64,000 nt of DNA from Deltaproteobacteria bacterium (GTDB lineage Bacteria > Desulfobacterota > Syntrophia > Syntrophales > UBA5619): positions 30-64,029 of the forward strand of contig JAJFUM010000089.1 of the NCBI GenBank assembly GCA_021372415.1, read 5' to 3'. The position numbers were made by a program, and so were the translations under genes. Of this stretch, positions 15,640-49,571 are shown in pieces (position 1 is the first letter of the stretch; each line of letters starts with the position of its first letter). The notes beneath the pieces were generated by a model. That model was given only the letters and a program-made list of their open reading frames with translations, did not search any database and was not told where the DNA came from.

Positions 15640-15646
15640 GACTCGC

Positions 15647-16663: not shown

Positions 16664-16702
16664 GACTTTACCTCCTGTTCGATGGAATCCTAACAGGGGA
16701 CT

Positions 16703-16741
16703 GTGAAGCCATGATGACCGATCTATGAAGATTGGATGAAA
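16703..16741 (-). promoter_or_regulatory. Pho-box array (4 phased repeats) plus -10 TAGGAT (16687-16692) upstream of psd
   Basis: Gene-sense strand: TTCAT-n6-TTCAT-n6-GTCAT-n6-TTCAC-n10-TAGGAT. All four TCA cores sit exactly 11 bp apart. This is the cleanest copy in the window. Confidence 0.65.
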
Positions 16742-16760
16742 CGATGCCGCAAGGGCATCG
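16742..16760 (-). terminator. hairpin after arsC (possible weak intrinsic terminator)
   Basis: CGATGCC-CTTGC-GGCATCG followed by TTTCAT on the minus strand. It directly abuts the psd Pho boxes. Confidence 0.4.
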
Positions 16761-16798
16761 GAAAGAAATGTCCAGTAGAGAAACAGGGAAGTTCATGG

Positions 16799-17230
16799 TT
16801 AAAGACCGAGGAAGGCCCCCCATTTTCTGACCGCGGTCCCGATGTCGCCCCTGATCCTTCTCATGGCGTTCATCCTGTCTTCCAGTGTGACGCCCAGGAG
16901 CTCCGGGTCGGGGAAGCTCCAGTGGAGGCAATTGGCGTTCCCCGAAAAGAAAGGGCGATGCTCACCGGAAGCTTCATCGCAGACGGTAATGATCCACGAA
17001 AAGGCTTCTCCTGCTTTCAGAAAATCCTGGACTTTCTTTGTTCTGCTTTGAGAGATGTCGATCCCGACTTCGTCCATCGCCGTGACGACCAGTGGGTTTA
17101 AGTCCCCGGGTTCGAGCCCGGCGCTTTTTGCCTCGAACCGGTCTCCGTAGAGGGCATTCAGCCAGCCTTCCGCCATTTGAGAGCGGGCGCTGTTGTGGGT
17201 ACAGATGAACAGGACCTTTCGCTTTTTCAT
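16799..17230 (-). CDS. arsC: LMW-PTP-fold arsenate reductase / protein-tyrosine phosphatase family protein
   Basis: 'VLFICTHNSARSQMAEGW' CX5R(S) P-loop and 'VCDEA' second Cys. The third Cys of the thioredoxin-coupled type is not obvious, so substrate is uncertain. Confidence 0.75.
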   Translation of the reverse strand: MKKRKVLFICTHNSARSQMAEGWLNALYGDRFEAKSAGLEPGDLNPLVVTAMDEVGIDISQSRTKKVQDFLKAGEAFSWIITVCDEASGEHRPFFSGNANCLHWSFPDPELLGVTLEDRMNAMRRIRGDIGTAVRKWGAFLGL

Positions 17231-17259
17231 CGCTTCGCTCCGAAAATGGACCCGTTAAA

Positions 17260-17291
17260 CAGAGACAGGCCTCAGCGAGGCCCTGTCTCTG
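17260..17291 (-). terminator. strong hairpin between pstS-1 and arsC (terminator or attenuator)
   Basis: Minus strand: CAGAGACAGGGCC-loop-GGCCTGTCTCTG then TTTAAC. A second 7-bp hairpin lies at about 17294-17313. Only about 30 nt separate it from the arsC ATG, so partial read-through is plausible. Confidence 0.5.
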
Positions 17292-17334
17292 CACCGTGTC
17301 CTAGCCGACACGGGGGCGACTGCCGATGCCTCTT

Positions 17335-18156: not shown

Positions 18157-18198
18157 GGATTATCCTCCTCATTTGTTTTGGCGAAAATATAGGGGATC

Positions 18199-18239
18199 AT
18201 TGTTACAGGATGATGACGGATCCATGAATCTTCCGTAAA
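18199..18239 (-). promoter_or_regulatory. Pho-box array plus -10 TATATT upstream of pstS-1
   Basis: Gene-sense: TTTAC-n6-TTCAT-n6-GTCAT-n6-GTAAC-n10-TATATT. Near-identical layout to the pstS-2 promoter. Confidence 0.65.
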
Positions 18240-18264
18240 CGAAGAATGCTTCCCGGACCGGCCC

Positions 18265-18305
18265 GCTTCATCAAGAATTCACGCTCCCTACATCACGCTG
18301 CAACA
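18265..18305 (+). promoter_or_regulatory. Pho-box-like array upstream of phoA-family gene
   Basis: TTCAT-n6-TTCAC-n6-TACAT-n6-GCAAC, then TAGGCT at the same +14 offset from the last core as in the other promoters. Confidence 0.5.
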
Positions 18306-18343
18306 ACATGAACTTAGGCTCTCTCAAAAACAAAGGAGACGCT

Positions 18344-20167: not shown

Positions 20168-20208
20168 CTCTCATCATCTCTTCATGACCCCGTAAAATCC
20201 CTGAAACA
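20168..20208 (+). promoter_or_regulatory. Pho-box-like array upstream of MCP-1
   Basis: CTCAT-n6-TTCAT-n6-GTAAA-n6-GAAAC with 11-bp phasing; TTATCT/GATTAT -10 at the expected offset (about 20216-20223). The proximal repeats are weaker. Confidence 0.4.
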
Positions 20209-20251
20209 GAAATTTGATTATCTGAGCCCACTTCACAGATGGGAGGTTCAT

Positions 20252-22216: not shown

Positions 22217-22258
22217 GTTATCATCAAAACTTAGCATATCCGTCATCGTCCTGTAACA
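22217..22258 (+). promoter_or_regulatory. Pho-box array plus -10 TATACA upstream of phnC
   Basis: ATCAT-n6-TTAGC-n6-GTCAT-n6-GTAAC-n10-TATACA. The proximal half CCGTCATCGTCCTGTAAC nearly matches pstS-1 CCGTCATCATCCTGTAAC. Confidence 0.55.
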
Positions 22259-22324
22259 TCCCTGCTCTATACATCGGTCCATCCATGATCGTCCCGGACG
22301 ATCCAATCAACCGAGGGGTCCGCC

Positions 22325-26852: not shown

Positions 26853-26927
26853 CGCGTCCTCCTGATCTGGATTCGGGGTACGCCCAAGACCACGGACCGA
26901 TCCCCTGTCTACAGTTACCGCAGCGAT

Positions 26928-26966
26928 GTTGCAGAATGATGACCGAGCCGTTAATAGATGGTTGCC
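26928..26966 (-). promoter_or_regulatory. weaker Pho-box-like array upstream of phoH
   Basis: Gene-sense GCAAC-n6-TTAAC-n6-GTCAT-n6-GCAAC with 11-bp phasing. The -10 candidate TAACTG is poor. Confidence 0.35.
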
Positions 26967-27023: not shown

Positions 27024-28001
27024 TCAGAGGGTAAGGGCCGATGCCAACCGGACCTGCATGCTGCCGGAATGACCGGGAGAGACACGCGTGTAGCGCCACC
27101 GAAGGGCACCGATTCGCCAGATCCCGTTTTCCCCCGGACCGATCTCCACTTTGCAGACAATGCCATACTGGAATTTTTTAAGCCTGAGGCCGGTGCAGAA
27201 ATCACCCAGGGAGAAGGCCAGGAGTTTCGCCGCATCGCCACGCCGCACCACCGACAGCGGCTGAGGGACATGGCAATGATGCCCCAGGACAGCGTCATAC
27301 CCGGATAGAAGATCTTCGCCTGCCTGAACGATGGCAGGCCGGGGAAACATCTCCAGTTCGTATCCCCAATGCGGATACGCCATACAGAAGGCCGCCGCAC
27401 CGGCCGAGCATCTATCGAGGACATCGAAGAAGGCGACCTCCCCGCAGGGCCGGTTGCTCCACATCGAGGCGCCGACGACCCGAACGCCATCGGCGATATC
27501 GGCAAAAGGCTCTTTCCTGAGGCCGAACACATGGAATCCCCGGTCACGCATGTGATTGATCGACTTCTTGAAGGTGGCCGCCGGATAATCTCCCGCATGG
27601 TTGTTGGCCACGCAGAGGAAGGTGCGGTCCGGCTGGAAGAGTCCGGCCAAGGCATCCAGGATGGAGGGGTTGTGCCTCTGGGCACCAGGGCTGGGCTTGC
27701 CAGCCCCGGTCACCGTCCCCTCCATGTTTCCGATTAGACGGTCGCAGCCCTGGAAGAAGAGGCGCACATCGGCCGCGATGTGGAGGGTGTGACGACCCAT
27801 GGCCATGATGTCGCCGACAACTCCCAGGGTGATCCGGGGTCGGATCGGATTCAGGATCGTTTCCTGGGGCAATGCCTGGATGCCGCAGGGATTCGTCTTT
27901 CGTACGCCCCGGATGTTCCGCCAGAGCCATACGATCGATTCCCGAAAAGGATAGGGCCCACCCCGGTCACTATCGATGCCGGATCGTTTCGTGTTTCCCA
28001 T
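27024..28001 (-). CDS. CapA-family (PGA_cap) metallophosphatase-fold protein
   Basis: 'GVVGDIMAMG', 'VANNHAGDY', 'AYPHWGYE', 'LGHHCHVPQP'. Start at MGNTKRSG; the upstream part of the track ORF is a shadow of the MBL gene. Confidence 0.75.
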   Translation of the reverse strand: MGNTKRSGIDSDRGGPYPFRESIVWLWRNIRGVRKTNPCGIQALPQETILNPIRPRITLGVVGDIMAMGRHTLHIAADVRLFFQGCDRLIGNMEGTVTGAGKPSPGAQRHNPSILDALAGLFQPDRTFLCVANNHAGDYPAATFKKSINHMRDRGFHVFGLRKEPFADIADGVRVVGASMWSNRPCGEVAFFDVLDRCSAGAAAFCMAYPHWGYELEMFPRPAIVQAGEDLLSGYDAVLGHHCHVPQPLSVVRRGDAAKLLAFSLGDFCTGLRLKKFQYGIVCKVEIGPGENGIWRIGALRWRYTRVSPGHSGSMQVRLASALTL

Positions 28002-28060
28002 GGTTAAGACAGTAATCGGCGATCTTGGCCCGCGCACGGGAATAGCGGCGTAACGCCGCA

Positions 28061-28738
28061 TCAGCGCAGGGCTTTTCGAATCACCTCGGCCGGAAAGGGC
28101 TTCCCGTGGGCCGGATAGACCGTCTTGGCGCCGGCATGCAGGAGCAACGTCCAACTCTCCCGAACCTGCTGGACGTCCTCGGCAAAGATGGGCAGACCCG
28201 GACCTAGGCGCAGAGGCCAGGCGTTCATCGCCAGATCGCCCACAAAGGCCTCCCCTGTTTCCAAGAGGACGCTGACGGAACCGCTGGAATGCCCAGGCGT
28301 GGGAAGGACGTTTCCGGGGATTCCATAGTCGTAAAGCGAAAAGGCCTGGTTCTCGAGGACGACATCGACCTTGGCCGCGGGGATGTCGATCCAGGGAAGA
28401 AAGCCCACCATGACGCCTGCCAGGAGCCGCCCCCAAGCCGTTACACCCGGCTCCAAGCGCTTTTGGGATTTTTCCAGCCACGCCTTCTCTTCGCGGTGCA
28501 GGGCCACCTTGGCCCCGGTGATGTCCCTGATGACGCTGGCCGAACCGATGTGGTCCCAATGACCGTGGGTGAGGATGATCAACCCGATCTCATCGGGTAT
28601 CAGGGAGAGCCGGTCCATGGCTCTCAGAAAGCCCCTCATCATCCCCGGCGATCCGCCGTCGATCATAACGATTCCGTCGCCTTGGAGCAGATAGCACCGA
28701 TCGGCTCCCAATTTCATGGTATGGATGAATACATTCAT
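28061..28738 (-). CDS. MBL-fold metallo-hydrolase
   Basis: 'LILTHGHWDHIG' HxHxDH motif. Start at MNVFIH (alternative 28771). Confidence 0.8.
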   Translation of the reverse strand: MNVFIHTMKLGADRCYLLQGDGIVMIDGGSPGMMRGFLRAMDRLSLIPDEIGLIILTHGHWDHIGSASVIRDITGAKVALHREEKAWLEKSQKRLEPGVTAWGRLLAGVMVGFLPWIDIPAAKVDVVLENQAFSLYDYGIPGNVLPTPGHSSGSVSVLLETGEAFVGDLAMNAWPLRLGPGLPIFAEDVQQVRESWTLLLHAGAKTVYPAHGKPFPAEVIRKALR

Positions 28739-28784
28739 GTGAAACGCGCCGTCTCTCCCTTGCCGCAGCATCGCGCCGCCACGT

Positions 28785-29708
28785 TCAGAGCGGATCCCTC
28801 CTGAAGTACCTCCAGACCCCCAGCACACCGATCAGGGAGATCACCGAGAGACCGAGGATGATCCAGAAGGCGTAGTCGTTTTTCTGCAGGGGGATGGCCA
28901 CGTTCATGGAGAAGGTGCTGACCACGAGCGTGGGGATCATGATGCCGATCGTAACGATGTTCAGCCGCTTCATGAGGATGTTCAGGTTGTTGTTGACGAT
29001 GGAGGCCCGGGCGGCCGTCATCGACGAGAGGATATTGGAATACATCCTGGCCTGCTTGAAGCACTGGTAATTCTCGATGATGATGTCATCGAGGAATTCC
29101 CGGTCTTCCGGAGAGCGGAGCATCTGCTGGCCCAGGTGCCTCATCTTCTCCAGGAGGGCGCTGTTGGACGACATGGCGTTGAGATAGTAGACCAAACTCT
29201 TTTCGAGATCGAAGAGCTGCAGCAGATACCGGTTCTCCATGGAAGAACTGATCTTTTCCGACAGGTCTTCGGAAACCCGGGCGATGATCTGCAGGTGGGT
29301 CCGGAAGAGGGAAATGGAGGCATTGATGAGTTTGAGCATCACCTCCTCCGGACGGCCGATTCTGGAAAAGGGTCTTCCCGAGAAAGGTGCAGGTTCCTCG
29401 GCGGAGACGACGATCAAAAGATCCGCAAAGAGGAAGAAACCGACGGACGTAACTTTGAATTCCAGGTCCCCTCCGGGGACATGGTTCCGGGGAACCTTGA
29501 AGATCACGGCCCGATGGTTCGGCTCAATCTCGATGCGGGCCTGTTCGTCCGGGTCCAGGGTGGAATGGAGGGTATGCTCATCAAGCCCGTGATGATGAAT
29601 CAGGACCCTCTGCTCGTCCTCATCGGGAGCGGCAAACCAGGCAACCCGCGCAAAAGCCGGGTGGCATTCGACCAGGCGCTCGTCTTCGATGTTGTAAGAC
29701 CGTATCAT
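28785..29708 (-). CDS. CorA-family divalent-cation channel homolog with SMN in place of GMN
   Basis: Cytoplasmic N-domain plus two C-terminal TM helices. Signature position reads 'STFSMNVAIP' instead of YGMNF. Confidence 0.7.
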   Translation of the reverse strand: MIRSYNIEDERLVECHPAFARVAWFAAPDEDEQRVLIHHHGLDEHTLHSTLDPDEQARIEIEPNHRAVIFKVPRNHVPGGDLEFKVTSVGFFLFADLLIVVSAEEPAPFSGRPFSRIGRPEEVMLKLINASISLFRTHLQIIARVSEDLSEKISSSMENRYLLQLFDLEKSLVYYLNAMSSNSALLEKMRHLGQQMLRSPEDREFLDDIIIENYQCFKQARMYSNILSSMTAARASIVNNNLNILMKRLNIVTIGIMIPTLVVSTFSMNVAIPLQKNDYAFWIILGLSVISLIGVLGVWRYFRRDPL

Positions 29709-29778
29709 CGGTTATCCCCTGTCATCCCCCTTTCCTTCCCGGCAAATCCGGGAAGAAAAAGGGGGCTGCGTTCGTTCT

Positions 29779-30078: not shown

Positions 30079-30121
30079 ACTGTCTACCTCCTGATGAAGT
30101 GATGGAAAAAACAGGCGATAC

Positions 30122-30649: not shown

Positions 30650-30667
30650 ACGGCACCTCCTGAGGGT

Positions 30668-33847: not shown

Positions 33848-33897
33848 CCCTTGTCATCCTTTCCGCCGAATCGCTTTTCAAAATTCCGCCAGCGGGA

Positions 33898-35813: not shown

Positions 35814-35824
35814 GCAGCCCCCTT

Positions 35825-36967
35825 TCAAACCGTTCCGCCGGCAAGGCGGGATTGGTACTCGTCGATGACCTTTCTCTTGTCGAAATCCCCCATATTGAGA
35901 ATCTTGCGGACGGCCGTATCGTCCCAGGGGGGTTGATGGCCGATTTCACGGGCGGCCTTGTCGGGATCCTGTTGTTCGGGATCGAGGATCTTTTCGCTCA
36001 GATGGGTATCGTCCCCCATCATGACCAGCAGGCGTCTGCCCCCCTGCCCGGCCTTGTTCTTCCTGATCACCGTCTGGATCAAGAATTCCGTAAACTCCCG
36101 GGATTGCGGATTCCAAACCTCATAGCCGTCCACATCATAATCGGCCAGAAGGACAGGCCAGAACTGCTCCGGATGGGGCACGACGACCCCGCCGGCCAAT
36201 CCTCTGGCCTCCTCGATGATCTCGTTCACCTCATAGAAATAGTCGAGACGAAACCGTCGCTTCACGACCTCCTTGACCCCGGCCGCAAAGATCACCGACC
36301 TGTCGATTGCATGGGCATCGTAAAACTCCCGATGGGCGTTGATGTAACTGATCACCAGCTTGTTCTTCAGCGCCATGTCGGGAATCGAATCGGACCTCAA
36401 TTCAATCATCCTTTTGAGCTTTCCGGCCAGGACCCCGGTAAAGAGGACCAATGCTTCCTCGGTTCCCGTATGCCTGGCCGCTTCCAGGAGGCACCCCTCA
36501 TGACGGGGATCGACCAACGTCTCCAGAAACTCGAACAACTGCGTCTGTCGATACTGGCGGGTATGGGCGATCATGGACCTCAGGCTGTGGGCCTTTTCGA
36601 TCTCTCCGGACCGGAAATGGAGCAGGATCTGAATCTTGCGATTGAAGGCATCGGCCCGACAGTCTACCTCGGCACCCGCGTAATCGCCGTAGACGAGGAT
36701 CTCATTGTGCTGGGTCGGAATGATCAGGGTCTGACCGGCATGGGGATAGACCCTCCGCAGCCTCGTTTCGACCAGCGGCAGGGGGACCATCTCCGGGTGC
36801 CAGTGGATGGCCAGAACAGACCCCTCCGTGTCGAAAATCTTCCCCGGGCAGACGATGCGTTCGATCTGCAGCGGGGTGAGTTCCATCGCGGTCAGTTTCT
36901 CAAAGATCTGCAGATCCCATTCCGTAATTTCCTCCACGGCATCCTGGAGGTTTCTGATTGCTGGCAT
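35825..36967 (-). CDS. hypothetical protein, possible PHP-like metal-dependent phosphoesterase
   Basis: His/Asp motifs in PHP-like order: 'AIHWHPE' (HxH), 'PTQHNE', 'VVPHPEQF', 'DGYEVWN', 'MGDDTHL' (GxDxH). Start uncertain (ATG 36967 or TTG 37006). Confidence 0.4.
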   Translation of the reverse strand: MPAIRNLQDAVEEITEWDLQIFEKLTAMELTPLQIERIVCPGKIFDTEGSVLAIHWHPEMVPLPLVETRLRRVYPHAGQTLIIPTQHNEILVYGDYAGAEVDCRADAFNRKIQILLHFRSGEIEKAHSLRSMIAHTRQYRQTQLFEFLETLVDPRHEGCLLEAARHTGTEEALVLFTGVLAGKLKRMIELRSDSIPDMALKNKLVISYINAHREFYDAHAIDRSVIFAAGVKEVVKRRFRLDYFYEVNEIIEEARGLAGGVVVPHPEQFWPVLLADYDVDGYEVWNPQSREFTEFLIQTVIRKNKAGQGGRRLLVMMGDDTHLSEKILDPEQQDPDKAAREIGHQPPWDDTAVRKILNMGDFDKRKVIDEYQSRLAGGTV

Positions 36968-37014
36968 GAACAACGGTCCCTCGCCTCCGAAATTTTCATT
37001 ATCCAATCATCAAA

Positions 37015-37054
37015 CTGTAACGCGAATATGACGGGAGCGTTAAGATCTCATGAA
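37015..37054 (-). promoter_or_regulatory. Pho-box-like array facing the GAK-type operon
   Basis: Gene-sense TTCAT-n6-TTAAC-n6-GTCAT-n6-GTTAC with exact 11-bp phasing. The -10 candidate GATAAT lies 3 nt further away than in the strong promoters. Confidence 0.4.
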
Positions 37055-37133: not shown

Positions 37134-37169
37134 AAAGGCGATCGGGGAGATCCTTCAGCGGTCGCCTTT
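37134..37169. terminator. bidirectional-terminator-like hairpin inside a divergent promoter region
   Basis: AAAAAA-AAAGGCGATCG-13 nt-CGGTCGCCTTT-CC. On the minus strand the stem is followed by TTTTTT. Confidence 0.35.
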
Positions 37170-37178
37170 CCACCGAAG

Positions 37179-37231
37179 TTTCACGGAGGATTCATCCAAG
37201 CGTCATCACTTCGTCACAGGGATCGTATAGA
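37179..37231 (+). promoter_or_regulatory. Pho-box array plus -10 TATAGA upstream of the 811-aa ORF
   Basis: TTCAC-n6-TTCAT-n6-GTCAT-n6-GTCAC; all four TCA cores are 11 bp apart. TATAGA follows 8 nt later, about 50 nt before the GTG at 37283. Confidence 0.6.
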
Positions 37232-37282
37232 CAAGGAATCGAATGTTGAGAGAATCTGAAACCCCTTTGAAAGGAACTGTCT

Positions 37283-39718
37283 GTGAGCAGAAATGAAAAC
37301 GCCCTGTCCCCCCCCGTGGTCCCGATGCGGGGGCCGGAGGAGCGGCTTCTCTCCTCCCGGGAGGCGATGGAAAGACTGGACGTTTACGGGCCGGCCGGTA
37401 TTGATGCAGAGGCCCTGCCCTTCTCCCTTTACGATACCACCGCCGGAAGCGAAACCGAGCTACAGGCCGTCGTGATCGGAAAGCGGGAAGACGTCGACCT
37501 CCCCATCACGATCACTCAGTCCCACTACCTGGCCAACATCATCCGGCGCAGGGCCTCCGGCGAACTGCCGGGACGAGCGATGACCGAGTTGGAAAGGTAC
37601 CTCCAAGACAATGTCGACGGCGTGTGGGAAAACAGCTGGGTCCGCTTCCCCAGGGACATGCTGGGCCCCTTCGCCCAGGGGATCCTCAGTGGCGACCTCT
37701 TGGCGGACAAGGCCGACCCTTCCCAGGGATACCGGACCGACCTGACCGATTTCATCTTCCGGCAGGAAGACCGGGAATATCTCCGCATCCCGATCAGTTA
37801 TCTGCTGAAGCTCTCCCTGGCCGAGGCGATCGACGGACAGCCGCCCGCCGTGGCCGAGACGGGACGCAGCCTGATGGATCACTTCCTGAGCGACAACACC
37901 TCGCCGGAGATCTGTTCCTTCCAGGTCTCATCCCTCACCCCCCGGACCGGGATGGGCCGAGAGGTGGCCAGGGAATCGGCGAAGCGGTTCCTCCTGACGC
38001 AACTGCTCGTCCAGTACGCGAACCAGCGTTTCGGCCTCATGCAGAGCGGGCAGAAGGCGATGGTATTCTATTCGCCCCATCCGCCGATCCGTCAGAAGAG
38101 GCTCAACGCCTGCATCTCCGACGCCTTCTACCGGGAGCTTTTCATGAACCCCTGCCTTTCGGGTTGGAACCGCGGCGAGATCAAAAAGGAATACATGCAC
38201 CTGTGTCATCGGGTCCTGAGCCGCAGCCAGCTCAACGCCCTGGGGAAGCTCCGCGAATCGGGCATCATCACCCGCAACCTCGTGGTCCTTCCGAATACCT
38301 CCAACATCTGCCTGGCCAACAACGGAACGCACGTCAGCCTCGGCAGCCGAAAAATCACCGCTCTCCTGAAGGACCCGGCCTCCGGCTTCACGGCCCGCCA
38401 CGAGAAATACCTCGGGGATCTGGTCATCAAGATCCTGGAGCATTTCCTCCCCCTCTTCGTGGGCACCTACAGTGCGACCCCCTACCGGCTCGACTACTCG
38501 GAATTCCATCCGGAATGCGTCCTGGGGTTCCTTCCCCATGAACTGGATTTCGACCACCTGCGCATGCTCTGGAGGCGGTGGCAGAAGAAGGCGGACATCC
38601 GTGTATTCGGGAAAACCGTGACCCCCTTCGGTCCCCCCTGGCTCGACGGGGCGATCCGTGCTGTTTTCAGGCTCCGCGGCGATTTCCTCCCCGACTTCCG
38701 CCTCATCGACTACCTGGTGGCCCTGAGGAGCACTGAAAAGAGCCCGGCCCTGGACGGAATGCTTCACAACCACGACCGGCTCAAGCAGGATCTTGCCGAA
38801 CTGGGCGTCTTCGACAAGCGGATGTCCCTCTACCTGTTCAACAAACTCCGCGAGTATGCCACCATGGGGTTCTCCGGCTTCGAGGGACGCTCCTACAGCC
38901 TCTTCTTCAATCTCGAAGAGGATATGGCCGGGGCCGTGGACCTGCAGAACCTCTTGGCGGCCCTTGCGTTCCAATATATCGCCGGGGGGATCGCCGACCA
39001 CGACCGTATCCCCGACGATCCTTTTGTCGAGAGCGAGAGACGGCAAATCGTCTTCGGGCGGGCCGTGGGCATCCCCACTTTTTTCGTCCGCCAGGACACC
39101 CAGAACCTCTTCCTGCAGCGGATCATCGAGAAGACCCAGCGGGTCAGGGTCAGCCGGCGCTATCCCGGCTACTGGAGGGTCCACCACCGGGAGTATTGCC
39201 GGGCCCTCGTGCGACTTATCCGGGAAGACGGGGCGGATCTGATCAAAACTCTCGGGATGGCCGAAAAGATCGCCGACCTCGAAAAGAGGCTGGAAGATCC
39301 TGACCGCTGTTCCGCCCTGGGAAAGCTGACGCAGGCCATCCTCCAAAAGGCCAGGGCCGCCTCCCCGATGGCGGTGCAGGCCGCAAACTTCAATCGGAGC
39401 GCCGAGGACTACTACCGCAACGACCTGCGGAAGGCTCACGCCATGGAAGGGGTCCGCTTTCTTGAGGAAGACCTTCGGCGCATCGCCTCGACCGCCTGCA
39501 ACGAAAAAGAAACCCTGAACGCCCTCCTCCGGCAGATCGGCGGTGACGGGTCCTGCTCCGAATCCTTCAGATGGGCCATCAACGACGAAAATACCCCTCC
39601 GCAAATCTTACGCAGCCTGATTTCCATCCTGATCGTCACCGTCGGCTTCGATCGCCGGGAGTCTGAACGGGCAACCGTCGAGATGGCCGGTCACCGCCTG
39701 GACGCGGTTCACCAGTAG
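37283..39718 (+). CDS. large conserved-looking hypothetical protein (811 aa), no family recognised
   Basis: Long ORF with balanced amino-acid composition, unlike its Arg/Gly/Pro/Asp-rich antisense shadow. AAAGGAA RBS 7 nt before the GTG. No TM segments or signal peptide. Confidence 0.6.
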   Translation: MSRNENALSPPVVPMRGPEERLLSSREAMERLDVYGPAGIDAEALPFSLYDTTAGSETELQAVVIGKREDVDLPITITQSHYLANIIRRRASGELPGRAMTELERYLQDNVDGVWENSWVRFPRDMLGPFAQGILSGDLLADKADPSQGYRTDLTDFIFRQEDREYLRIPISYLLKLSLAEAIDGQPPAVAETGRSLMDHFLSDNTSPEICSFQVSSLTPRTGMGREVARESAKRFLLTQLLVQYANQRFGLMQSGQKAMVFYSPHPPIRQKRLNACISDAFYRELFMNPCLSGWNRGEIKKEYMHLCHRVLSRSQLNALGKLRESGIITRNLVVLPNTSNICLANNGTHVSLGSRKITALLKDPASGFTARHEKYLGDLVIKILEHFLPLFVGTYSATPYRLDYSEFHPECVLGFLPHELDFDHLRMLWRRWQKKADIRVFGKTVTPFGPPWLDGAIRAVFRLRGDFLPDFRLIDYLVALRSTEKSPALDGMLHNHDRLKQDLAELGVFDKRMSLYLFNKLREYATMGFSGFEGRSYSLFFNLEEDMAGAVDLQNLLAALAFQYIAGGIADHDRIPDDPFVESERRQIVFGRAVGIPTFFVRQDTQNLFLQRIIEKTQRVRVSRRYPGYWRVHHREYCRALVRLIREDGADLIKTLGMAEKIADLEKRLEDPDRCSALGKLTQAILQKARAASPMAVQAANFNRSAEDYYRNDLRKAHAMEGVRFLEEDLRRIASTACNEKETLNALLRQIGGDGSCSESFRWAINDENTPPQILRSLISILIVTVGFDRRESERATVEMAGHRLDAVHQ

Positions 39719-42671: not shown

Positions 42672-42766
42672 ATCGCCATTCCGGACTCAGCCCTTCCTCT
42701 GGAGCCTCTTTGGGACAGGTCCGGGTGGCCTGAATTTCAGCCTAAATGACGTCATCCTAGAACGGA

Positions 42767-42808
42767 ATTGTTGTCCCTTGATGAAGACCCCGTGAATAAA
42801 GGATGACG
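42767..42808 (-). promoter_or_regulatory. Pho-box array plus -10 TAGGAT upstream of the EAL-CBS-GGDEF gene
   Basis: Plus-strand text ATTGTTGTCCCTTGATGAAGACCCCGTGAATAAAGGATGACG aligns in register with the pstS-2 promoter ATTGTTACAATTCGATGACAACCCCGTGAAGCTTCCGTGAAA. TAGGAT sits at the canonical offset, and a TGACGTCA palindrome (42748-42755) overlaps the -10/TSS. Confidence 0.5.
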
Positions 42809-42829
42809 AAAAGGCGGGAAGTCCGCTCT

Positions 42830-43534
42830 TCAGGCTTCGTCGGCGAACTTGTAGCCGATACCGCGGACGGTCAGGATATACCGTGGGTTCGAAGGGTCCG
42901 GCTCGATCGCCCCCCTCAGGCGGCTGATGTGGACATCCACCGTCCGGGGCTCTACGAAGGACTCGTCACCCCAGACGCGGTCGAGAAGCTGTTCGCGGCT
43001 GTAAACCCGGCCGGGATGGCCAATGAAGAACTGCAGCAGTTTGAACTCGCGGGAGCTGAGCTCGACCTCCCTGCCCTCAAGGGTCACGCGGTAGGCCTTC
43101 AAATCGACGTGGAGCCCCTGGAAATCGAAAGACTCCGGCAGGTTTTCGTCCGGGTGCTGATCCGATCGCCTCAGGACGGCGCGGACCCGGGCGATCAGCT
43201 CCCGAACATGAAAAGGCTTGGTAAGGTAGTCGTCCGCCCCGATCTCCAGCCCCAGGATCCGGTCCACAGGTTCAGACTTGGCGGTCAGCATGATAATGGG
43301 CAGATTCGCCGTCTCGGGGACGCCCCGGACGATCCGGCACACCTCCGTTCCCGATACCCCGGGCATCATCAGGTCCAAGACGACCAGGTCCGGCTTGTCA
43401 CGCCGGATCGATTCCAGGGCGCTGCCGCCATCCAGGGCCTTCAGGACGGAGAATCCTTCCCGTTCGAGATTGTAGGCAACCAGTTCCACGATGTCTTTCT
43501 CGTCGTCGGCAACGAGGATCTTCTTCTGCGTCAT
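42830..43534 (-). CDS. phoB: OmpR/PhoB-family response regulator
   Basis: Receiver 'ILVADDE...DLVVLDLMMPG' plus winged-helix 'REFKLLQFF...VDVHISRLR'. Last gene of the pst-phoU-phoR operon. Confidence 0.85.
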   Translation of the reverse strand: MTQKKILVADDEKDIVELVAYNLEREGFSVLKALDGGSALESIRRDKPDLVVLDLMMPGVSGTEVCRIVRGVPETANLPIIMLTAKSEPVDRILGLEIGADDYLTKPFHVRELIARVRAVLRRSDQHPDENLPESFDFQGLHVDLKAYRVTLEGREVELSSREFKLLQFFIGHPGRVYSREQLLDRVWGDESFVEPRTVDVHISRLRGAIEPDPSNPRYILTVRGIGYKFADEA

Positions 43535-45288
43535 GTCGATTCCTCATAGAGGGGAAAATGGAGCGAAACCGTGGTGCCGTGGCCCAGGGTGCTCTCGATG
43601 GCCATCCGTCCCCCATGGGCCTTCATCAGGTGTTTGACGATCGAAAGCCCCAGGCCCGTGCCCCCCATTTCCCGCGAACGCGTCTTGTCCGCCCGATAAA
43701 ACCGCTCGCCCAGCCGTGGGATCTCCCCCTTGGGGATGCCCACACCCGTGTCGGCGATCCGGACGATCAGGGTCCTCTCATCACCGGGTTCAACCGTGAC
43801 GGCGATCGACCCGCCCGCCGGTGTAAACTTGACGGCGTTGTCCAGAACGTTGAGCAGGATCTGGGCCAGCCGGTCCCGGTCGGCCCGGATGGGCGGCAGT
43901 CCTTCCGGGACCTCCCGGATGAGTTTCAGCCCCTTCTCAAAAATCCTGGCAGTCACAAGGGCCAGGACGTCATCCAGGGCCCCTTCCAGGGAGAGCCGTT
44001 CGAGACGGAGATTCTCCTCGCCCAACTCGATCCCGGAGAGGGTCAGAAGGTCGTCCACGAGGCGATTGAGCCGCTCGGCGTTCTCGCGGATTGTCGCCAG
44101 GAACTTATAGGTCTTCTCCTGGTCCACAAGAGCCCCTTGCTCAAGGGTCTCCACAAAACCGATGATCGCTGTCAGGGGAGTCCGGATCTCGTGGGTGACG
44201 TTGGCCACGAAGTCTGTGCGGACCCGCTCGAGTTTCTTCAGGCGCGTCACGTCGTGGAAGACCAACAGGGTCTTTTCCTCCCCGCCGGCTTCCCCCCGGA
44301 TGGCAGAAATCGTCACGTCCATCACGACCGGATTTTCATCCCCCATGGTGATCTCGCGAAAAATCGGCGTTCCCGACTGCCGGAAACGCTCCAGGGCATC
44401 CTGGAGTGAGATATTCCGGAAGGCCTCCAGGGGCGTCCTGCCGACGAGTTCCCCCTGGGACCGCCCGATCGTCTCCTCCATCCCCCGGTTGAGGGTCTCG
44501 ATCCGTCCGCCGGCATCCAGAACGACGATCCCTTCCACCATGCCGGTAAAGAGGGATTGAAGTTTTCTTTTTTCCCCATCGGCGGCGCGGATCTTCTCCT
44601 GCAGGACCTCGACCATCCCGTTGATGTTGGCGGCCAGGACGCCGATCTCGTCCCGGGAAGGGATCCTGACCATCCCGGAAATCTGTCCGACCTGTACCTT
44701 TTCGGTGAAGGCCACCAGCTTCCCGATGGGTGAAATCGCCCGGATGCTGTAGATCAGGCAGAGAAAGAGCGGAATGAACAGGCCCGGAACGAGAATCCAG
44801 AGAAAGATCCGCCGGAAGGACTCCATGGAACGGACCACCTCCTGAATGGGACGGGCCAAGCGGATGTACCTTTTTATCTCCCCCTTCTCTGTCAGGGCAA
44901 GGGCCACATACTGGAGCTCGATCGCGAGGGTGCGGCTGTAACGGACCGCCGATCCCTCCCCCCTCAGGCGGGCTTCCTGGACTTCCGTCCGGTAGAGAGG
45001 GTTCCCCGGCTCGATTGCGGCGGGGTTCGAATCGGCCAGGACCCGGCCGGCAGCGTCAAGCAAGGTTATCCTGGCGCCGGCACTTTCTGCAAATTCCACA
45101 ATACGCGCCGACACTTGATCCGGAGGGATCAAGGCAATCAGACGCGCTTCGGCCGCCATCTCTTCCTCGCTCCAGCGCATGAGGACGCCCTTGAGCTCCC
45201 GGTCGATCAGGAACCCGGCGATCAGCGCCGCAATGACCCCGATCGTAAGGAAGGCGACAAACAGCCTGAAGGAGAGTCTTCTCTTCAT
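43531..45288 (-). CDS. phoR: PhoR-like sensor histidine kinase (TM-HAMP-PAS-HisKA-HATPase)
   Basis: 'FVANVTHEIRTPLTAI' H-box, 'LDNAVKFTP' N-box, 'GTGLGLSIVKH' G2. 4-nt overlaps with phoU and phoB. Confidence 0.85.
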   Translation of the reverse strand: MKRRLSFRLFVAFLTIGVIAALIAGFLIDRELKGVLMRWSEEEMAAEARLIALIPPDQVSARIVEFAESAGARITLLDAAGRVLADSNPAAIEPGNPLYRTEVQEARLRGEGSAVRYSRTLAIELQYVALALTEKGEIKRYIRLARPIQEVVRSMESFRRIFLWILVPGLFIPLFLCLIYSIRAISPIGKLVAFTEKVQVGQISGMVRIPSRDEIGVLAANINGMVEVLQEKIRAADGEKRKLQSLFTGMVEGIVVLDAGGRIETLNRGMEETIGRSQGELVGRTPLEAFRNISLQDALERFRQSGTPIFREITMGDENPVVMDVTISAIRGEAGGEEKTLLVFHDVTRLKKLERVRTDFVANVTHEIRTPLTAIIGFVETLEQGALVDQEKTYKFLATIRENAERLNRLVDDLLTLSGIELGEENLRLERLSLEGALDDVLALVTARIFEKGLKLIREVPEGLPPIRADRDRLAQILLNVLDNAVKFTPAGGSIAVTVEPGDERTLIVRIADTGVGIPKGEIPRLGERFYRADKTRSREMGGTGLGLSIVKHLMKAHGGRMAIESTLGHGTTVSLHFPLYEEST

Positions 45289-45977
45289 CCCTTCGGTCCG
45301 CAGGTCGGCTGGTGCCGTACGCTCTTTCCCGTGATCATGTAAATCACCATGTCTGCGATCCCCTCGGCGTGATCGGCGATGCGTTCGAGACTCTTGGAGA
45401 TCTGCATGATGTAGAGGCAGACCTGGATCTTATGAGGCTCTTCCATCATGAATGTGAGCAGTTCCCGGAAGATCTGCTCGTTGAGCCGATCAATAATGAC
45501 ATCCTCCTCCCGGACCCGATGGGCCAGTTCCACATCCTCGCTCACCATGGCGTCGAGGCTTCTGTGGATCATCCCCCGGACGATCTGGGCCATCCGCGGC
45601 AGATCGATGTAGGCCTTGATCTGGGGAATCTCGTTCAGGATGAGGACCTTCTCGGTGATATTGGCAGCCATGTCGCCGATCCGCTCCAGGTGGCCGGTGA
45701 TCTTGATCGATGTCGTGATGAACCGCAGGTCCCGGGCGGCGGGCTGGCGGAGGGCCAGAAGGCGGATGCACTTCTCCTCCAACTCGAAATCGAGGCGGTC
45801 GATCTGGTCGTCTTCGCAGATGACCTGCTTGGCCAGTTCGGAGTCTCTCTCCACGAGCGCCGTGGTTCCTTTTTCCAGGGCCTTTTCCGTCAGGGCCCCC
45901 ATGTAGAGCAGACCGTCCCGGATCTCCTGGAGCTCACGCTCGTATTCCGCGCTGGTATGTCGTTTGGCTTCTTCCAT
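45285..45977 (-). CDS. phoU: phosphate signalling complex protein PhoU
   Basis: 230 aa, two repeats with 'LERIGDMAANITE' and 'LERIADHAEGIAD'. Confidence 0.9.
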   Translation of the reverse strand: MEEAKRHTSAEYERELQEIRDGLLYMGALTEKALEKGTTALVERDSELAKQVICEDDQIDRLDFELEEKCIRLLALRQPAARDLRFITTSIKITGHLERIGDMAANITEKVLILNEIPQIKAYIDLPRMAQIVRGMIHRSLDAMVSEDVELAHRVREEDVIIDRLNEQIFRELLTFMMEEPHKIQVCLYIMQISKSLERIADHAEGIADMVIYMITGKSVRHQPTCGPKG

Positions 45978-46000
45978 GGTTCCTCCTTCGGCTCTGATGC

Positions 46001-46771
46001 TTAACCGAACCGACCGGTGATGTAATCCTCAGTCTGCTTCACATCCGGGTTGGTGAAGATCTTTTCCGTGGCGTTGAATTCGATCAGTTTGCCCATGTAG
46101 AAAAAACCCGTGTATTCCGAGACGCGGGCCGCCTGCTGCATGTTGTGCGTCACGATGATGATCGTGTAGCGTCTCTTGAGTTCGTCGATGAGCTCTTCGA
46201 TCTTCGCCGTGGAGATGGGATCGAGCGCCGAGGTCGGTTCGTCCATCAAAAGGACGTCGGGCTTCATGGCCAGCGCCCTGGCGATGCAGAGGCGCTGCTG
46301 CTGTCCGCCGGAGAGGGTCATGGCAGATTTTCCCAGGATGTCCTTCACCTCGTCCCAGAGGACCGCCTGTTTGAGGCTCTCCTCCACGAGGTTCTCCAGA
46401 TCGCCGTTGTTCCGGACGCCGGAGAGTCTCGGGGCGAAGGTGATATTGCTGAAGATCGACTTTGGAAAGGGGTTGGGCTTCTGGAAGACCATCCCGATCC
46501 GCTGGCGGATCCCCACGGGGTCCACGTCGGGGGCGTAGATGTTCTTCCCCTCGAACAGGATCTCCCCCTCCACCCGCGTCCCGTCGATCAGATCGTTCAT
46601 CCGGTTGAGGAGCCGAAGGAGCGTCGATTTGCCGCAACCCGACGGCCCGATCAAGGCGGTGACGCGGCTCTTTTCGAAATCCAGCGTCACGTCAGTCAGG
46701 GCCTTGAAGGCACCGTAATAGAAATCCACGTTCTTGGCCGTGATGATCATCTCTTTTTCCACATCTACCAC
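46001..46771 (-). CDS. pstB: phosphate ABC transporter ATP-binding protein
   Basis: 'NVDFYYG', 'GPSGCGKST', '[14 protein letters not shown]', '[12 protein letters not shown]'. Confidence 0.92.
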
Positions 46772-47646
46772 CTTTTCCTCTTCCGGACCATGCTGCGCAG
46801 GACAATGGCCACCAGATCGATCCCCAGGACCAGGACGATCAGGACCAGGGCCGTTCCGTACTGCAGGGGGCGGGTCTGCTCGATATGGGTCCCCGCCGTA
46901 GCCAGGACATAGATATGATAGGGCAAAGCCATCACCTCGTCAAAGACCGATTTCGGCAGAACGGCTGTGAAAAAGGCCGCCGCCGTGAACATGATGGGCG
47001 CCGTCTCCCCGGCGGCGCGTCCGACCCCCAGGATCGACCCGGTCAGGATCCCCGGCAGGGCCGAGGGAACAACGACCCGGGAGATGGTGCGCCATTTGGA
47101 GACGCCCAGGGCGAGAGAAGCCTCACGGAAGGTCTGGGGAACGGCCTTGAGGGCCTCCTCCGCAGCTCCGATGATCGTAGGGAGGATCAGGATCCCCAGG
47201 GTCAAGGCTCCGGAGAGGATGCTGGAACCGAATTTCAGGAAGACGACGAAAAAACCGAGGCCGAAGAGGCCGAAGACGACGGAGGGGACGCCGGCCAGGC
47301 AGTTGACGCCGATCCGGATGATCCGGATGAAGAGCCCCTGCTTCGCATATTCCGTCAGATAGATCGCCGAGACCACCCCCAGGGGGAGGGCAACAAGGAT
47401 CGCCCCGACGGTGAGGTAGAAGGTCCCGACGATGGCCGGCATGATCCCGCCTTTGGTCATGGAATCCAAAGGAGGTTCCGTAAGAAATCTCCAGCTGATG
47501 GCCCCGATCCCGTTGACCAGGAGAAAGGCGATGATTCCCACGAGAGCCACCGTGACGATGAAAGCTGCCAGCCGCACCACGCCGAAGAAGAAGCCCTGCC
47601 GGAGATAACGCCATTGCATGGACGGGTCTGGTCTATAGGCGCTCAT
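46765..47646 (-). CDS. pstA: phosphate ABC transporter permease PstA
   Basis: Polytopic permease with '[22 protein letters not shown]' EAA loop. Position in the operon. Confidence 0.9.
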
Positions 47647-48551
47647 AATGTTCCCGAACCCTCCTCTTTGAATCTGCGGGAGATGCGATCGGCGATCAGG
47701 TTGAAAAGGAGCGTGATCAGCAATAGAACGATCCCCGTGGCGAAGAGGGCGTGGTAATGGCCTCCCCCGAAGGGCGCTTCGCCCATCTCCGCAGCAATGC
47801 TTGCCGGCATGGGACGCACCGAATCAAAGATTCCCCGCGGGACTGCCGCCGAGCCTCCGGCCACCATGAGGACCACCATCGTCTCCCCGATCGCCCGGGA
47901 CATCCCCAGGATCACCGCCGTGGAGATCCCCGAGAGGGCAGCGGGGATCGAGACCCGGAGGATCGTCTCGTACCGCGTCGCCCCCAAGGCGTAAGAGGCC
48001 TCTTTGAAATCCCGGGGGACGGCGTAGAGGGCATCTTCCGAGATGCTCGATATGGTGGGGATCGCCATGACGGCCAACATGATGGAGGCGTTGACGATGT
48101 TGAGACCCGTGGGCAAATCGAAAGTCTCCTGCATCCAGGGCCCCAGGATCACCATCCCGAAGAAACCCAGGACCACCGAAGGGAGGCCTGCCAGGAGCTC
48201 GATCACAGACTTGAGAATCTCCTTGATCCGCGCCGGGGCGATCTCGGAGATGTAGACGGCGCAGCAGAGCCCGAAAGGAACGGCGATGAGACAAGACAGG
48301 GCCGTCACGATCACGGAGCCTACGATCAGAGGCCAGATCCCGTATTCCGGCGGATTGTACGTGGGATACCAGGACGACCCGAAGAGGAACTGCACCGGGT
48401 TGATCTCTTTGAAGAGGGGAAGTCCCTCCCGGAAGAGAAAAAGGACGATGAGCCCCAGAAAGAGCACAGAAAGGAAGGCAAAAAAGGCAAAGATATTCTT
48501 TATGATTATTTCCCTGGCCCTGCTGGTCAGGGCTCTTCGTCCGCTGTCCAT
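47643..48551 (-). CDS. pstC: phosphate ABC transporter permease PstC
   Basis: 'EDALYAVPRDFKEASYALGATRYE' EAA loop. Start chosen at MDSGRRAL. Confidence 0.88.
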   Translation of the reverse strand: MDSGRRALTSRAREIIIKNIFAFFAFLSVLFLGLIVLFLFREGLPLFKEINPVQFLFGSSWYPTYNPPEYGIWPLIVGSVIVTALSCLIAVPFGLCCAVYISEIAPARIKEILKSVIELLAGLPSVVLGFFGMVILGPWMQETFDLPTGLNIVNASIMLAVMAIPTISSISEDALYAVPRDFKEASYALGATRYETILRVSIPAALSGISTAVILGMSRAIGETMVVLMVAGGSAAVPRGIFDSVRPMPASIAAEMGEAPFGGGHYHALFATGIVLLLITLLFNLIADRISRRFKEEGSGTL

Positions 48552-48671
48552 AAACCTCTCTTCCGTATCAAAGCAACGCGGGCCCTGACGACCCGGCCCG
48601 CGCAAAAGCGTTCAACACCCAGGAAAGGACCCCGGCAGTGTATCAATCCCGCTGGCACCCCGGTTATACCG

Positions 48672-49496
48672 TCACCTTCCTGACAGAGGGACAAATCCTT
48701 CCCTCTTGACCAGGGCTTGACCCGCAGGGCTCAGGACGAACCGGATGTATCGAGCGGTCTCGCCCTTGGGCTCACCGTTGGTGAACAGGTACAGAGCCCT
48801 CGATACCGGATAGGCCTTCATGCTGGCCGTCTTCTCCGAGGCCCGGATGCCGTTGACCGACAGGGCCTTCACCGATTTGTCCAGGTATCCCAGGCCGATG
48901 TAACCCAGGGCATACCGGTTCTTCGAGACCGCCTGGACGATAGCCCCGTTGGAGGCCTGAAGCTGGGCCCGGGGCGTGACTTTGGCCCCCTTCAGGATCA
49001 GTTCCCCCCAGGCCTCGAAGGTCCCCGAACTGCTGTCCCTGGAGATCGCCACAATCTGAAGGTCCCGGCCGCCGACCTCCTTCCAGTTCGTGATCTTCCC
49101 CTGGTAGATCTGGCTGAGTTGATCGAGGCTAAGGTCGTTCACAGGGTTCCCCGGATGGACGATCGGTACGATGGCATCGATCGCCACCCTCGTCTCGACG
49201 GGATTGACCCCCTTGGTCTTGGCCAGTTCCACCTCTGCGGGCTTGATCTGCCGGGAGGATGTGGCGATGTCCGTGGCGCCGTCGATGAGGGCCTTGATCC
49301 CGTCGCCCGATCCCCCGCCGGACAGGGAGATCTTCGTCCCCGGATTCGCCTTCATGAAGGCCTCCAGGGTCGCCTGGGCGATGGGCAGGACCGTCGTGGA
49401 TCCCTTGATCACCACGCTGTCCGCAGAGACCGGACCGGCCGCGAGGATGAGTCCCGCCGCCAGCATCCAGAAGAACCATCCTGTTTTTTTCTCCAT
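48672..49496 (-). CDS. pstS: phosphate ABC transporter substrate-binding protein PstS (operon copy)
   Basis: Start at MEKKTGWFFW (signal peptide). The remaining upstream part of the 446-aa track ORF is Pro/Gly/Arg-rich read-through and was rejected. Confidence 0.9.
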   Translation of the reverse strand: MEKKTGWFFWMLAAGLILAAGPVSADSVVIKGSTTVLPIAQATLEAFMKANPGTKISLSGGGSGDGIKALIDGATDIATSSRQIKPAEVELAKTKGVNPVETRVAIDAIVPIVHPGNPVNDLSLDQLSQIYQGKITNWKEVGGRDLQIVAISRDSSSGTFEAWGELILKGAKVTPRAQLQASNGAIVQAVSKNRYALGYIGLGYLDKSVKALSVNGIRASEKTASMKAYPVSRALYLFTNGEPKGETARYIRFVLSPAGQALVKREGFVPLSGR

Positions 49497-49530
49497 CTCT
49501 TCTTCCCTCGCCAAGCAGCATAGAGGAGGA

Positions 49531-49571
49531 TTGTTACAATTCGATGACAACCCCGTGAAGCTTCCGTGAAA
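49531..49571 (-). promoter_or_regulatory. Pho-box array plus -10 TATGCT upstream of pstS-2 (pstSCAB-phoU-phoRB operon)
   Basis: Gene-sense TTCAC-n6-TTCAC-n6-GTCAT-n6-GTAAC-n10-TATGCT. Confidence 0.65.

Follow-up and report, generated by a model that had tools for sequence, protein, structure and literature searches.

In Escherichia coli, the Pho box sits about 10 base pairs (bp) from the -10 hexamer and occurs in one to several copies per promoter, and in Streptomyces coelicolor the regulator PhoP recognizes a consensus of the GTTCACC type. Each E. coli box consists of two 11-bp direct repeats with CTGTCAT (PMC11870197), and a strict spacing from Pho box to core promoter is known (PMC10294691). 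For Bacillus subtilis PhoP, four TT(A/T/C)ACA repeats with an 11-bp periodicity have been described (Eder 1999, as cited in PMC11870197), and S. coelicolor PhoP sites carry variable numbers of 11-nucleotide (nt) direct repeat units (PMC2275107). In Desulfovibrio vulgaris, the PhoB (DVU1083) box is made of (c/t)GT(n)AC repeats, validated by DNA affinity purification on chip (DAP-chip) and electrophoretic mobility shift assay, and the PhoB targets include pst, phoU and HD/EAL genes of cyclic di-GMP (c-di-GMP) metabolism (PMC3333781, PMC6456213). Among the literature we found, D. vulgaris PhoB is the closest experimentally mapped relative. The system described here lies in a 64-kb stretch of DNA from an uncultured Syntrophales bacterium (contig JAJFUM010000089.1; the whole stretch is hereafter the window). 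Ten intergenic sites in the window share one promoter architecture and, judged from sequence and taken as a set, are very probably the Pho-box promoters of a PhoB-type regulon. An earlier reading of the same DNA (the original prediction) had proposed such a regulon, and the proposal is now supported computationally by the specificity of the repeats, the pst-phoBR operon, the identity of the regulator, the lack of a -35 element and the conservation of the sites.

Architecture of the ten sites

All ten sites could be re-extracted at the coordinates and on the strands assigned to them by the original prediction, and at every one of them the first bases of four successive pentamers lie exactly 11 nt apart on the sense strand, as that prediction had claimed for the cores. 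The overall unit consensus is TTCAY / TTCAY / GTCATC / GTAACA. Position by position, unit 1 reads TTTCATC, unit 2 TTCACG, unit 3 CCGTCATCA and unit 4 TGTAACA, with A36, C37 and A38 each present in 10 of 10 sites. The spacers between repeats differ from copy to copy; the cores and the -10 box alone are conserved. The register of the -10 box is equally rigid, with 9 nt separating it from the unit-4 hexamer at all ten sites. At index 48, which lies 14 nt past the last TCA core, T is found in ten of the ten sites, followed by A at index 49 in eight and T at index 53 in seven. The spacing of 14 nt had been predicted and holds even more tightly than proposed; what can be dropped are the out-of-register hexamers suggested for two sites (TATAGA and GATAAT), since both of these sites have a hexamer in register (TAGACA and TTGGAT, respectively). 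The further proposal that the repeats replace a -35 element agrees with the 9-nt gap and with a consensus scan of 14-30 kb, in which none of the six sites from psd to phoH showed a canonical -35/-10 promoter. Measured to the start codon, the distance across the ten sites is 74-154 nt for the first repeat and 20-100 nt for the end of the -10 box.

Taken along the window, the first putative promoter is that of an operon of psd-like, DksA-like and Lgt-like genes (16687-16740, minus strand; repeats from 16740 to 16702, -10 TAGGAT from 16692 to 16687). It is followed by the promoter of pstS-1 and a downstream gene related to ArsC and low-molecular-weight protein tyrosine phosphatases (LMW-PTP) (18186-18239, minus; repeats from 18239 to 18201, -10 TATATT from 18191 to 18186), which stands back to back with the site of an alkaline phosphatase gene (18267-18320, plus; repeats 18267-18305, -10 TAGGCT 18315-18320) whose product matches Alk_phosphatase at E 1e-76. 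Next come the promoter of MCP-1, a methyl-accepting chemotaxis protein (MCP) with a dCache domain (20170-20223, plus; repeats 20170-20208, -10 TTATCT 20218-20223), that of phnCDE (22220-22273, plus; repeats 22220-22258, -10 TATACA 22268-22273), whose genes match ABC_tran, Phosphonate-bd and BPD_transp_1, and that of a PIN-PhoH (PhoH2-like) gene with a DUF2721 gene (26912-26965, minus; repeats from 26965 to 26927, -10 TAACTG from 26917 to 26912). A GAK operon (37001-37054, minus; repeats from 37054 to 37016, in-register -10 TTGGAT from 37006 to 37001) and the gene for a protein of 811 amino acids (aa) (37180-37233, plus; repeats 37180-37218, in-register -10 TAGACA 37228-37233) have the next two sites. 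The last two precede an EAL-CBS-GGDEF gene (42754-42807, minus; repeats from 42807 to 42769, -10 TAGGAT from 42759 to 42754) and the operon pstS-2-pstC-pstA-pstB-phoU-phoR-phoB (49517-49570, minus; repeats from 49570 to 49532, -10 TATGCT from 49522 to 49517). Five sites thus precede core Pho genes, as had been said: pstS-1, the pstS-2 operon, alkaline phosphatase, phnCDE and PIN-PhoH are all confirmed by family. The other gene names given in the original prediction are also right at the level of Pfam and NCBIfam families, except that psd is a divergent Psd-like gene and that the starts of the GAK operon and of pstS-2 have been revised.

In its 11-bp direct repeats and GTCAT core, this architecture is that of E. 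coli PhoB promoters such as pstS, which has two tandem Pho boxes, and in both cases the box takes the place of a -35 element about 10 bp before the -10. Unlike E. coli, exactly four units are present at all ten promoters, the consensus is position-specific with GTAACA as unit 4, and the targets are grouped in an island of 33 kb. Four 11-bp repeats are the standard for B. subtilis PhoP, and the unit-4 forms found here (GTAACA, GCAACA and TTCACA) fit TT(A/T/C)ACA; units 1-3, in contrast, are TTCAY/GTCAT and not TTAACA. D. vulgaris uses GTnAC direct repeats, likewise at 11-bp spacing (AGGTTACAGCATAGTTAC), and shares the pst, phoU and HD/EAL targets, but its box is an 18-bp pair of repeats for which neither uniform sets of four units nor a fixed -10 register have been reported, and its core is GTnAC rather than TTCAY/GTCAT. 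With S. coelicolor PhoP, the sites have in common the 11-nt direct repeat units and a response regulator of the same family, and they differ in consensus, in unit number, which is variable there, in phylum and in promoter context.

Specificity and placement in the window

The repeats are far from what base composition would produce. We searched for the degenerate pattern KTMAY-N6-KTMAY-N6-KTMAY-N6-KTMAY, with the expectation taken from dinucleotide shuffles, and found 11 matches at up to two mismatches against 0.04 expected, and 22 at up to three against 0.42. All but one of these 22 are the ten sites or their register shifts by 11 nt in either direction; the sole other match (36995-37032, plus) runs antisense to the GAK site and overlaps with it. 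A 41-nt weight matrix, scanned over the roughly 128,000 positions of the window, separates the sites just as sharply. With the full matrix the ten score 36.9-51.8 bits, pstS-1 being the best at 51.8, the next match scores 15.6 and all remaining ones 7.6 or less; 200 dinucleotide-shuffled windows gave a mean maximum of 7.4 bits. Nor does this depend on scoring the sites with a matrix that contains them. When each is left out in turn, it still ranks 10th or better among all positions, and when the matrix is built from pstS-1, pstS-2, phoA, phnC and phoH only, the psd, 811, EAL, GAK and MCP-1 sites take ranks 6-10. The original prediction had named matrix matches equally common in coding or shuffled DNA as the outcome that would count against it; in the 64-kb window they are found at promoter positions only.

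Their placement is equally telling. Non-genic DNA makes up 8.8% of the window and holds all ten sites, none being intragenic. The sites in the six intergenic regions between co-directional genes all face the gene downstream, and each of two divergent intergenic regions contains two sites, one per gene.

The one match above 8 bits outside the training set, at 15.6 bits, is the 811 site moved by one unit and hints at a fifth repeat; a TCCAC pentamer stands one unit upstream of that site (37169-37179, plus). A scan for two units, the equivalent of a single Pho box, returned some extra candidates, none of which we accepted: two upstream of corA fall inside a real amphi-Trp gene of 99 aa, and the remainder have no -10 box and are at chance expectation.

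Conservation in related loci

A query of the genome collection with the alkaline phosphatase returned only remote Bacteroidales matches (27-32% identity), and exact-sequence look-ups with the alkaline phosphatase and the regulator of the window gave no match. In the absence of a close relative in that collection, we took the 811-aa protein as the anchor for related loci, which gave 83 of them: three contigs, where this protein is 61-77% identical, and 80 metagenome loci, where it is 52-73% identical. In each of the three contigs the window-trained matrix places a four-unit box ahead of the 811 orthologue, and boxes there also precede psd-like, PIN-PhoH, pstS, alkaline phosphatase and EAL genes and a PHO4 operon. 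In the related loci, matches of at least 18 bits occur at 42.8 per Mb, compared with 1.1 per Mb in shuffles. They stand upstream of 811-family genes (22), pstS (10), amphi-Trp (4), PIN-PhoH (3), psd-like (3) and alkaline phosphatase (2) genes, and of single EAL, PhoB, LMW-PTP and Lgt-like genes. Just 36% of the matches lie in long stop-free stretches, although 90% of the DNA of these loci consists of such stretches.

These loci also provide an independent view of the core promoter. Among 75 non-identical matches, T is found at index 48 in 89%, A at index 49 in 89%, T at index 53 in 69% and G at index 46 in 54%; because the -10 positions lie outside the search matrix, they confirm the fixed-register -10 box on independent data. 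An A-rich patch follows at index 60-62, and a transcription start near index 60 is plausible. The GTAACA-type unit 4 recurs as well, with A36 in 97% and A38 in 90%. When the promoters of the psd-like gene (four genomes, A3) and of the 811 gene (six genomes, A4) are aligned, the invariant columns, counted upstream of the start codon, lie almost all in the repeat cores and the TA of the -10, and the flanks have diverged. The genomes with conserved sites show 52-78% protein identity to the window. Orthologous boxes precede psd-like genes in L005, L009 and L010 and PIN-PhoH genes in L005, L009 and L053, and the box upstream of the EAL orthologue in L003 reaches 50.5 bits.

The window-trained matrix performs poorly on one related locus, that of Desulfomicrobium salsuginis (L089, 66% GC). 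Inspection by eye finds GTAAC-N6-GTGAC-N6-GACAC ahead of its GAK operon (5260-5290) and GTCAC-N6-GTCAC ahead of its 811-family gene (14725-14790), and these GTnAC repeats at 11-bp spacing resemble the D. vulgaris Pho box.

The regulator, the kinase and the pst operon

The predicted repeat binder is encoded within the regulon itself. The pstS-2 site heads a run of genes in which pstS, pstC, pstA, pstB, phoU, phoR and phoB are all present: phoU, pstB, pstA, pstC and pstS-2, assigned by family matches, occupy 45285-49496 on the minus strand, with pstS-2 starting at the ATG at 49496; a phoR-type histidine kinase of 585 aa follows at 43531-45288 (minus), and a phoB-type OmpR-family response regulator of 234 aa, recognized by NCBIfam and PDB matches, at 42830-43534 (minus). 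Since the site stands at the head of the operon that contains phoB, the pst-phoU-phoR-phoB genes are predicted to be autoregulated, and this operon context supports PhoB/PhoP orthology of the regulator.

The best NCBIfam match of the regulator is PhoB (TIGR02154), which outscores the next family by 28 bits. Its DNA-binding domain alone matches Mycobacterium tuberculosis RegX3 at E 2e-29 and E. coli PhoB (1GXP/3T72) at E 1e-27, and the recognition helix is conserved with respect to E. coli PhoB (RTVDVHIxRLR), reading PRTVDVHISRLRG here and DRTVDVHIRRLRK in PhoB. In work from 2002, Blanco and colleagues are said to have identified T194, V197 and R201 as the base-contacting residues of PhoB; in what we take to be the same numbering, all three are conserved in the window regulator and would fit a GTCA-type half-site. 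No second DNA-binding response regulator came to light in those called genes of the window that the search covered.

The kinase has a first transmembrane (TM) segment, an extracytoplasmic loop of about 135 aa and a second TM segment, followed by HAMP, PAS, HisKA and HATPase domains. This order makes it a long PhoR, B. subtilis-like and unlike the short PhoR of E. coli. The system has PhoU, PstSCAB and the recognition helix in common with E. coli, as well as pstS, phoA, phn and the operon of the regulator itself as targets, and departs from it in the long kinase with its loop of about 135 aa and HAMP domain and in having pstSCAB-phoU-phoR-phoB as one operon. It shares the kinase architecture with B. 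subtilis, and departs from that organism in a regulator whose top-scoring family is PhoB, in the presence of phoU in the operon, and in a diderm host with multihaem cytochromes and AsmA/OmpA proteins. As a caveat to the PhoB reading, the uniform four repeats and the long PhoR with its extracytoplasmic loop are as close to B. subtilis PhoPR as to E. coli PhoBR. The uniform four units, the GTAACA proximal unit, the long kinase and the ten promoters within 33 kb are distinctive here, and all of them fall within the known kind.

A model for phosphate-responsive transcription

From these elements a pathway can be proposed. We infer that the window regulator binds the repeats, that it activates rather than represses, and that the signal is phosphate. 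Upon phosphate limitation, the PhoR-type kinase, acting with PstSCAB and PhoU as in the known pathway, would phosphorylate the PhoB-type regulator. The repeats, spaced by 11 bp or about one helical turn, lie on one face of the DNA, and two head-to-tail regulator dimers might occupy the four of them, from about -60 to -22, if the geometry follows that of PhoB and PhoP systems. With no -35 element to contact, sigma-70 RNA polymerase would be recruited by the proximal protomer, seated on GTAACA, to the TAnnnT box at its fixed distance, and transcription would probably start about 7 nt past the -10 hexamer. The regulon predicted from the sites comprises both pstS genes, pst-phoU-phoR-phoB, alkaline phosphatase, phnCDE, PIN-PhoH and a chemoreceptor, and would further include the EAL-CBS-GGDEF c-di-GMP enzyme, the GAK operon and both halves of a module of 811-aa, Psd-like and Lgt-like proteins. 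Since the promoter logic is that of textbook PhoB and PhoP, what the analysis adds is a regulon map for an uncultured lineage, not a new mechanism. At the same time, the rigid four-unit, fixed-register layout makes it possible to search Thermodesulfobacteriota metagenomes for Pho regulons with high specificity.

Alternative explanations

Several observations weigh against a PhoB-type regulon of all ten promoters. The regulator scores 280 bits against the TIGR02154 cut-off of 296.2, and its best full-length PDB matches are MtrA and RegX3, not PhoB. The kinase also falls below cut-offs, with 365 bits against 400 for PnpS, a Firmicute family that is its best NCBIfam match, and 279 against 334 for phoR_proteo. 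The phoH site has a poor -10 box (TAACTG) and the GAK site a non-canonical one (TTGGAT). The MCP-1 site is the weakest of all: left out of the matrix it scores 19.2 bits and ranks 10th, it needs three mismatches to fit the degenerate pattern, its units 3 and 4 are degenerate, and it has no conserved counterpart in the related loci, where both MCP matches lie more than 320 nt from the open reading frame. We hold the MCP-1 site, which draws its support from within the window, with lower confidence than the set as a whole. The specificity figures themselves were gauged on 64 kb of the genome. Finally, many PhoB sites in E. coli are transcriptionally inert (PMC10294691), so that regulation cannot be concluded from a sequence match by itself.

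This last point leads to the alternative that survives best, in which the sites are genuinely bound by PhoB and a subset of them (MCP-1, phoH, EAL and GAK) is inert or repressive. The E. coli precedent speaks for it, and it is these four whose repeats or -10 boxes are weakest. In the case of EAL-CBS-GGDEF, moreover, the gap between the phoB stop codon and the first repeat is just 22 nt (42808-42829), which leaves no room for a terminator; the gene may receive read-through from pst-phoBR in addition to its own Pho promoter, and read-through could suffice. However, all four sites keep the exact register from box to -10, with the first repeat 82-154 nt from the start codon, and no site is intragenic. 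Those of phoH, EAL and GAK are also kept at orthologous promoters, whereas the inert sites of E. coli are poorly conserved. We therefore regard an inert or repressive subset as rather unlikely.

A second alternative is that a different OmpR-family regulator binds the repeats in response to another signal, such as arsenate, Mg2+ or envelope stress, and that the link to the phosphate genes is partial or indirect. The slightly sub-threshold PhoB score and the MtrA and RegX3 matches speak for it, and ArsC-like and CorA genes are among the targets. Against this, PhoB is still the top family, by the 28 bits given above, the regulator gene belongs to a pstSCAB-phoU operon with a site of its own, and no further DNA-binding response regulator turned up among the genes searched. 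RegX3 is itself a phosphate regulator, and five of the targets are canonical Pho genes. A regulator of another signal thus appears improbable.

That the sites are instead copies of a dispersed element, like repetitive extragenic palindromes (REP) or miniature inverted-repeat transposable elements (MITE), or that they arose by chance or from base composition and have no part in regulation, is scarcely credible: ten copies of a pattern of about 40 nt do lie in intergenic DNA within 33 kb, but only the cores and the -10 are conserved while spacers vary, shuffles yield no matches, orientation and start-codon distance are fixed, and the sites persist at orthologous promoters despite diverged flanks. 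A PhoB-type regulon remains by far our preferred reading, and it gives the two least familiar sets of targets, the GAK operon and the 811-aa protein module, a concrete predicted condition of expression, namely phosphate limitation.

The GAK operon

The operon behind the GAK site spans 28785-36967 on the minus strand. In order of transcription it encodes a 380-aa protein (35825-36967) with no domain match, an amphi-Trp protein (35532-35813), a kinase with PhoU and APH domains (33898-35535), an ATP-grasp protein (32966-33847), an HprK-related kinase B (31882-32973), a CofD-like protein (30668-31915), a 175-aa protein (30122-30649), a second amphi-Trp protein (29779-30078) and CorA (28785-29708). 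The family scores are above their cut-offs for grasp_GAK (408 bits, cut-off 300), HprK_rel_B (470, cut-off 200) and CofD_rel_GAK (500, cut-off 340), and the two amphi-Trp proteins score 33 and 44 bits (cut-off 31). By these family assignments the operon is a GAK system as NCBIfam defines it (TIGR04354-04357), through the co-occurrence of ATP-grasp, HprK-related kinase B, CofD-like and amphi-Trp proteins. The first gene starts at the ATG at 36967 and not at the TTG at 37006, which overlaps the -10 box, and gene calls on a 98%-identical contig (L093, SRR6476075) agree with the gene set.

The same order is found in five other genomes (L087-L091), where a protein of about 377 aa is followed by amphi-Trp, the PhoU and APH kinase, ATP-grasp, HprK-related kinase B, CofD-like and amphi-Trp genes. 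CorA closes the operon in four of these five, being absent from L089, and in five of six when the window is counted. The conserved core therefore includes a kinase with a PhoU domain and, in those five genomes, a CorA-type channel. A four-unit box also precedes the first GAK gene by 84-92 nt in L087, L088, L091 and, weakly, L090, compared with 87 nt in the window, and the GAK neighbours in those genomes are pst, phoU and kinase genes, PHO4, PIN-PhoH, alkaline phosphatase or the 811 module. Literature searches on GAK returned nothing relevant.

Downstream of corA, the longest-open-reading-frame calls at 27024-28828 (minus) overlap, a PGA_cap protein of 511 aa with a metallo-beta-lactamase of 255 aa. 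The calls on contig L093 resolve the overlap, giving 345 and 236 aa, respectively. These two genes may belong to the GAK transcription unit.

The 811-aa protein and its Psd-like and Lgt-like partners

The 811-aa protein (37283-39718, plus) is soluble and belongs to a large uncharacterized family with at least 2,952 homologues, every one of them annotated as hypothetical; the named ones come from metagenome-assembled genomes of Syntrophales, Syntrophaceae, Smithellaceae and Geobacteraceae. In the window, its partners stand apart from it on the minus strand (14175-16663), as a psd-like gene (15647-16663), a gene for a DksA/TraR-like zinc finger (15217-15639) and one for a seven-TM Lgt-like protein (14175-15227). 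Elsewhere they are together. Of the 83 related loci, 68 have a Psd-like gene, and in 65 it directly follows the 811 gene in the same orientation, the two matches being separated by a median of 47 nt; an Lgt-like gene is found in 55 loci and comes next in 52. This adjacency points to an ancestral operon, headed by a Pho box, of 811-family, Psd-like, sometimes DksA-like, and Lgt-like genes. The operon has come apart in the window and its closest relatives, where a four-unit box heads each half, an argument that the box is selected.

The psd-like gene matches Pfam PF02666 only and fails the Psd equivalogs, with 120 bits against 371 for NF001941 and 87 against 111.75 for TIGR00163; by sequence, its product is a divergent Psd-like protein rather than an established Psd. 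Many His, Asp, Glu, Arg and Cys residues are invariant in the 811-aa family. Neither Pfam nor NCBIfam matches the window protein, a profile search of the PDB had a best E of 0.36, and a Pfam search of 15 family members at E up to 5 found nothing shared, with three single-member matches at E of about 0.2. A structure model built from 15 sequences was poor (predicted local distance difference test, pLDDT, 59), and an AlphaFold model from 118 sequences usable (pLDDT 79.9, predicted template modelling score 0.87). A Foldseek search of the PDB with the latter gave no significant match (best E 0.5); the best partial folds were GshA (1v4g/3nzt) and PafA (4bjr), with target-normalized template modelling (TM) scores of 0.36-0.47, and Dop (5lrt) scored 0.20. 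The model thus gives a weak hint of a likeness to carboxylate-amine ligases of the glutamate-cysteine-ligase or PafA type. Literature searches for a link between Psd, Lgt and phosphate starvation returned nothing relevant.

It is tempting to consider the two modules together. The operon of the 811-aa protein, a Psd-like decarboxylase of the pyruvoyl type and an Lgt-like homologue of diacylglyceryl transferases might constitute a new pathway of membrane-lipid remodelling or of phospholipid head-group recycling, and GAK a system of phosphate-linked signalling or modification, the two forming part of a core phosphate-starvation response in Syntrophales-like anaerobes. We offer this as a tentative idea that may well prove wrong. 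The predicted phosphate control of the two modules is in itself a lead on how anaerobic bacteria of sediments and digesters cope with scarcity of phosphorus.

Other genes of the window

Downstream of pstS-1, the gene at 16799-17230 (minus) encodes a protein of the LMW phosphatase fold whose best NCBIfam match is thioredoxin-type ArsC (101 bits against 174). If it detoxifies arsenate, its pairing with a high-affinity phosphate-binding protein would make sense. An alpha/beta hydrolase gene is also among the genes of the island. Adjoining the Pho island, at 49643-57101 (minus), is a cluster of multihaem c-type cytochromes of 649, about 875 and 342 aa, with Cytochrome_C7 and MtrC/MtrF-like domains, together with a rhodanese gene; the window scan found no Pho box in this cluster. 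Scans for Rfam families and tRNA genes found none in the window. A Firmicute host, considered at first because of the strong ribosome-binding sites and the PhoP-like set of four repeats, was rejected in view of the multihaem cytochromes, the AsmA/DUF748-OmpA protein and the homologues with Syntrophales names; these point to a diderm member of the Thermodesulfobacteriota that is probably Syntrophales-like. Elsewhere the window, which has a GC content of about 60% and strong GGAGG ribosome-binding sites, encodes an AsmA/DUF748-OmpA protein, Tex and pyruvate kinase.

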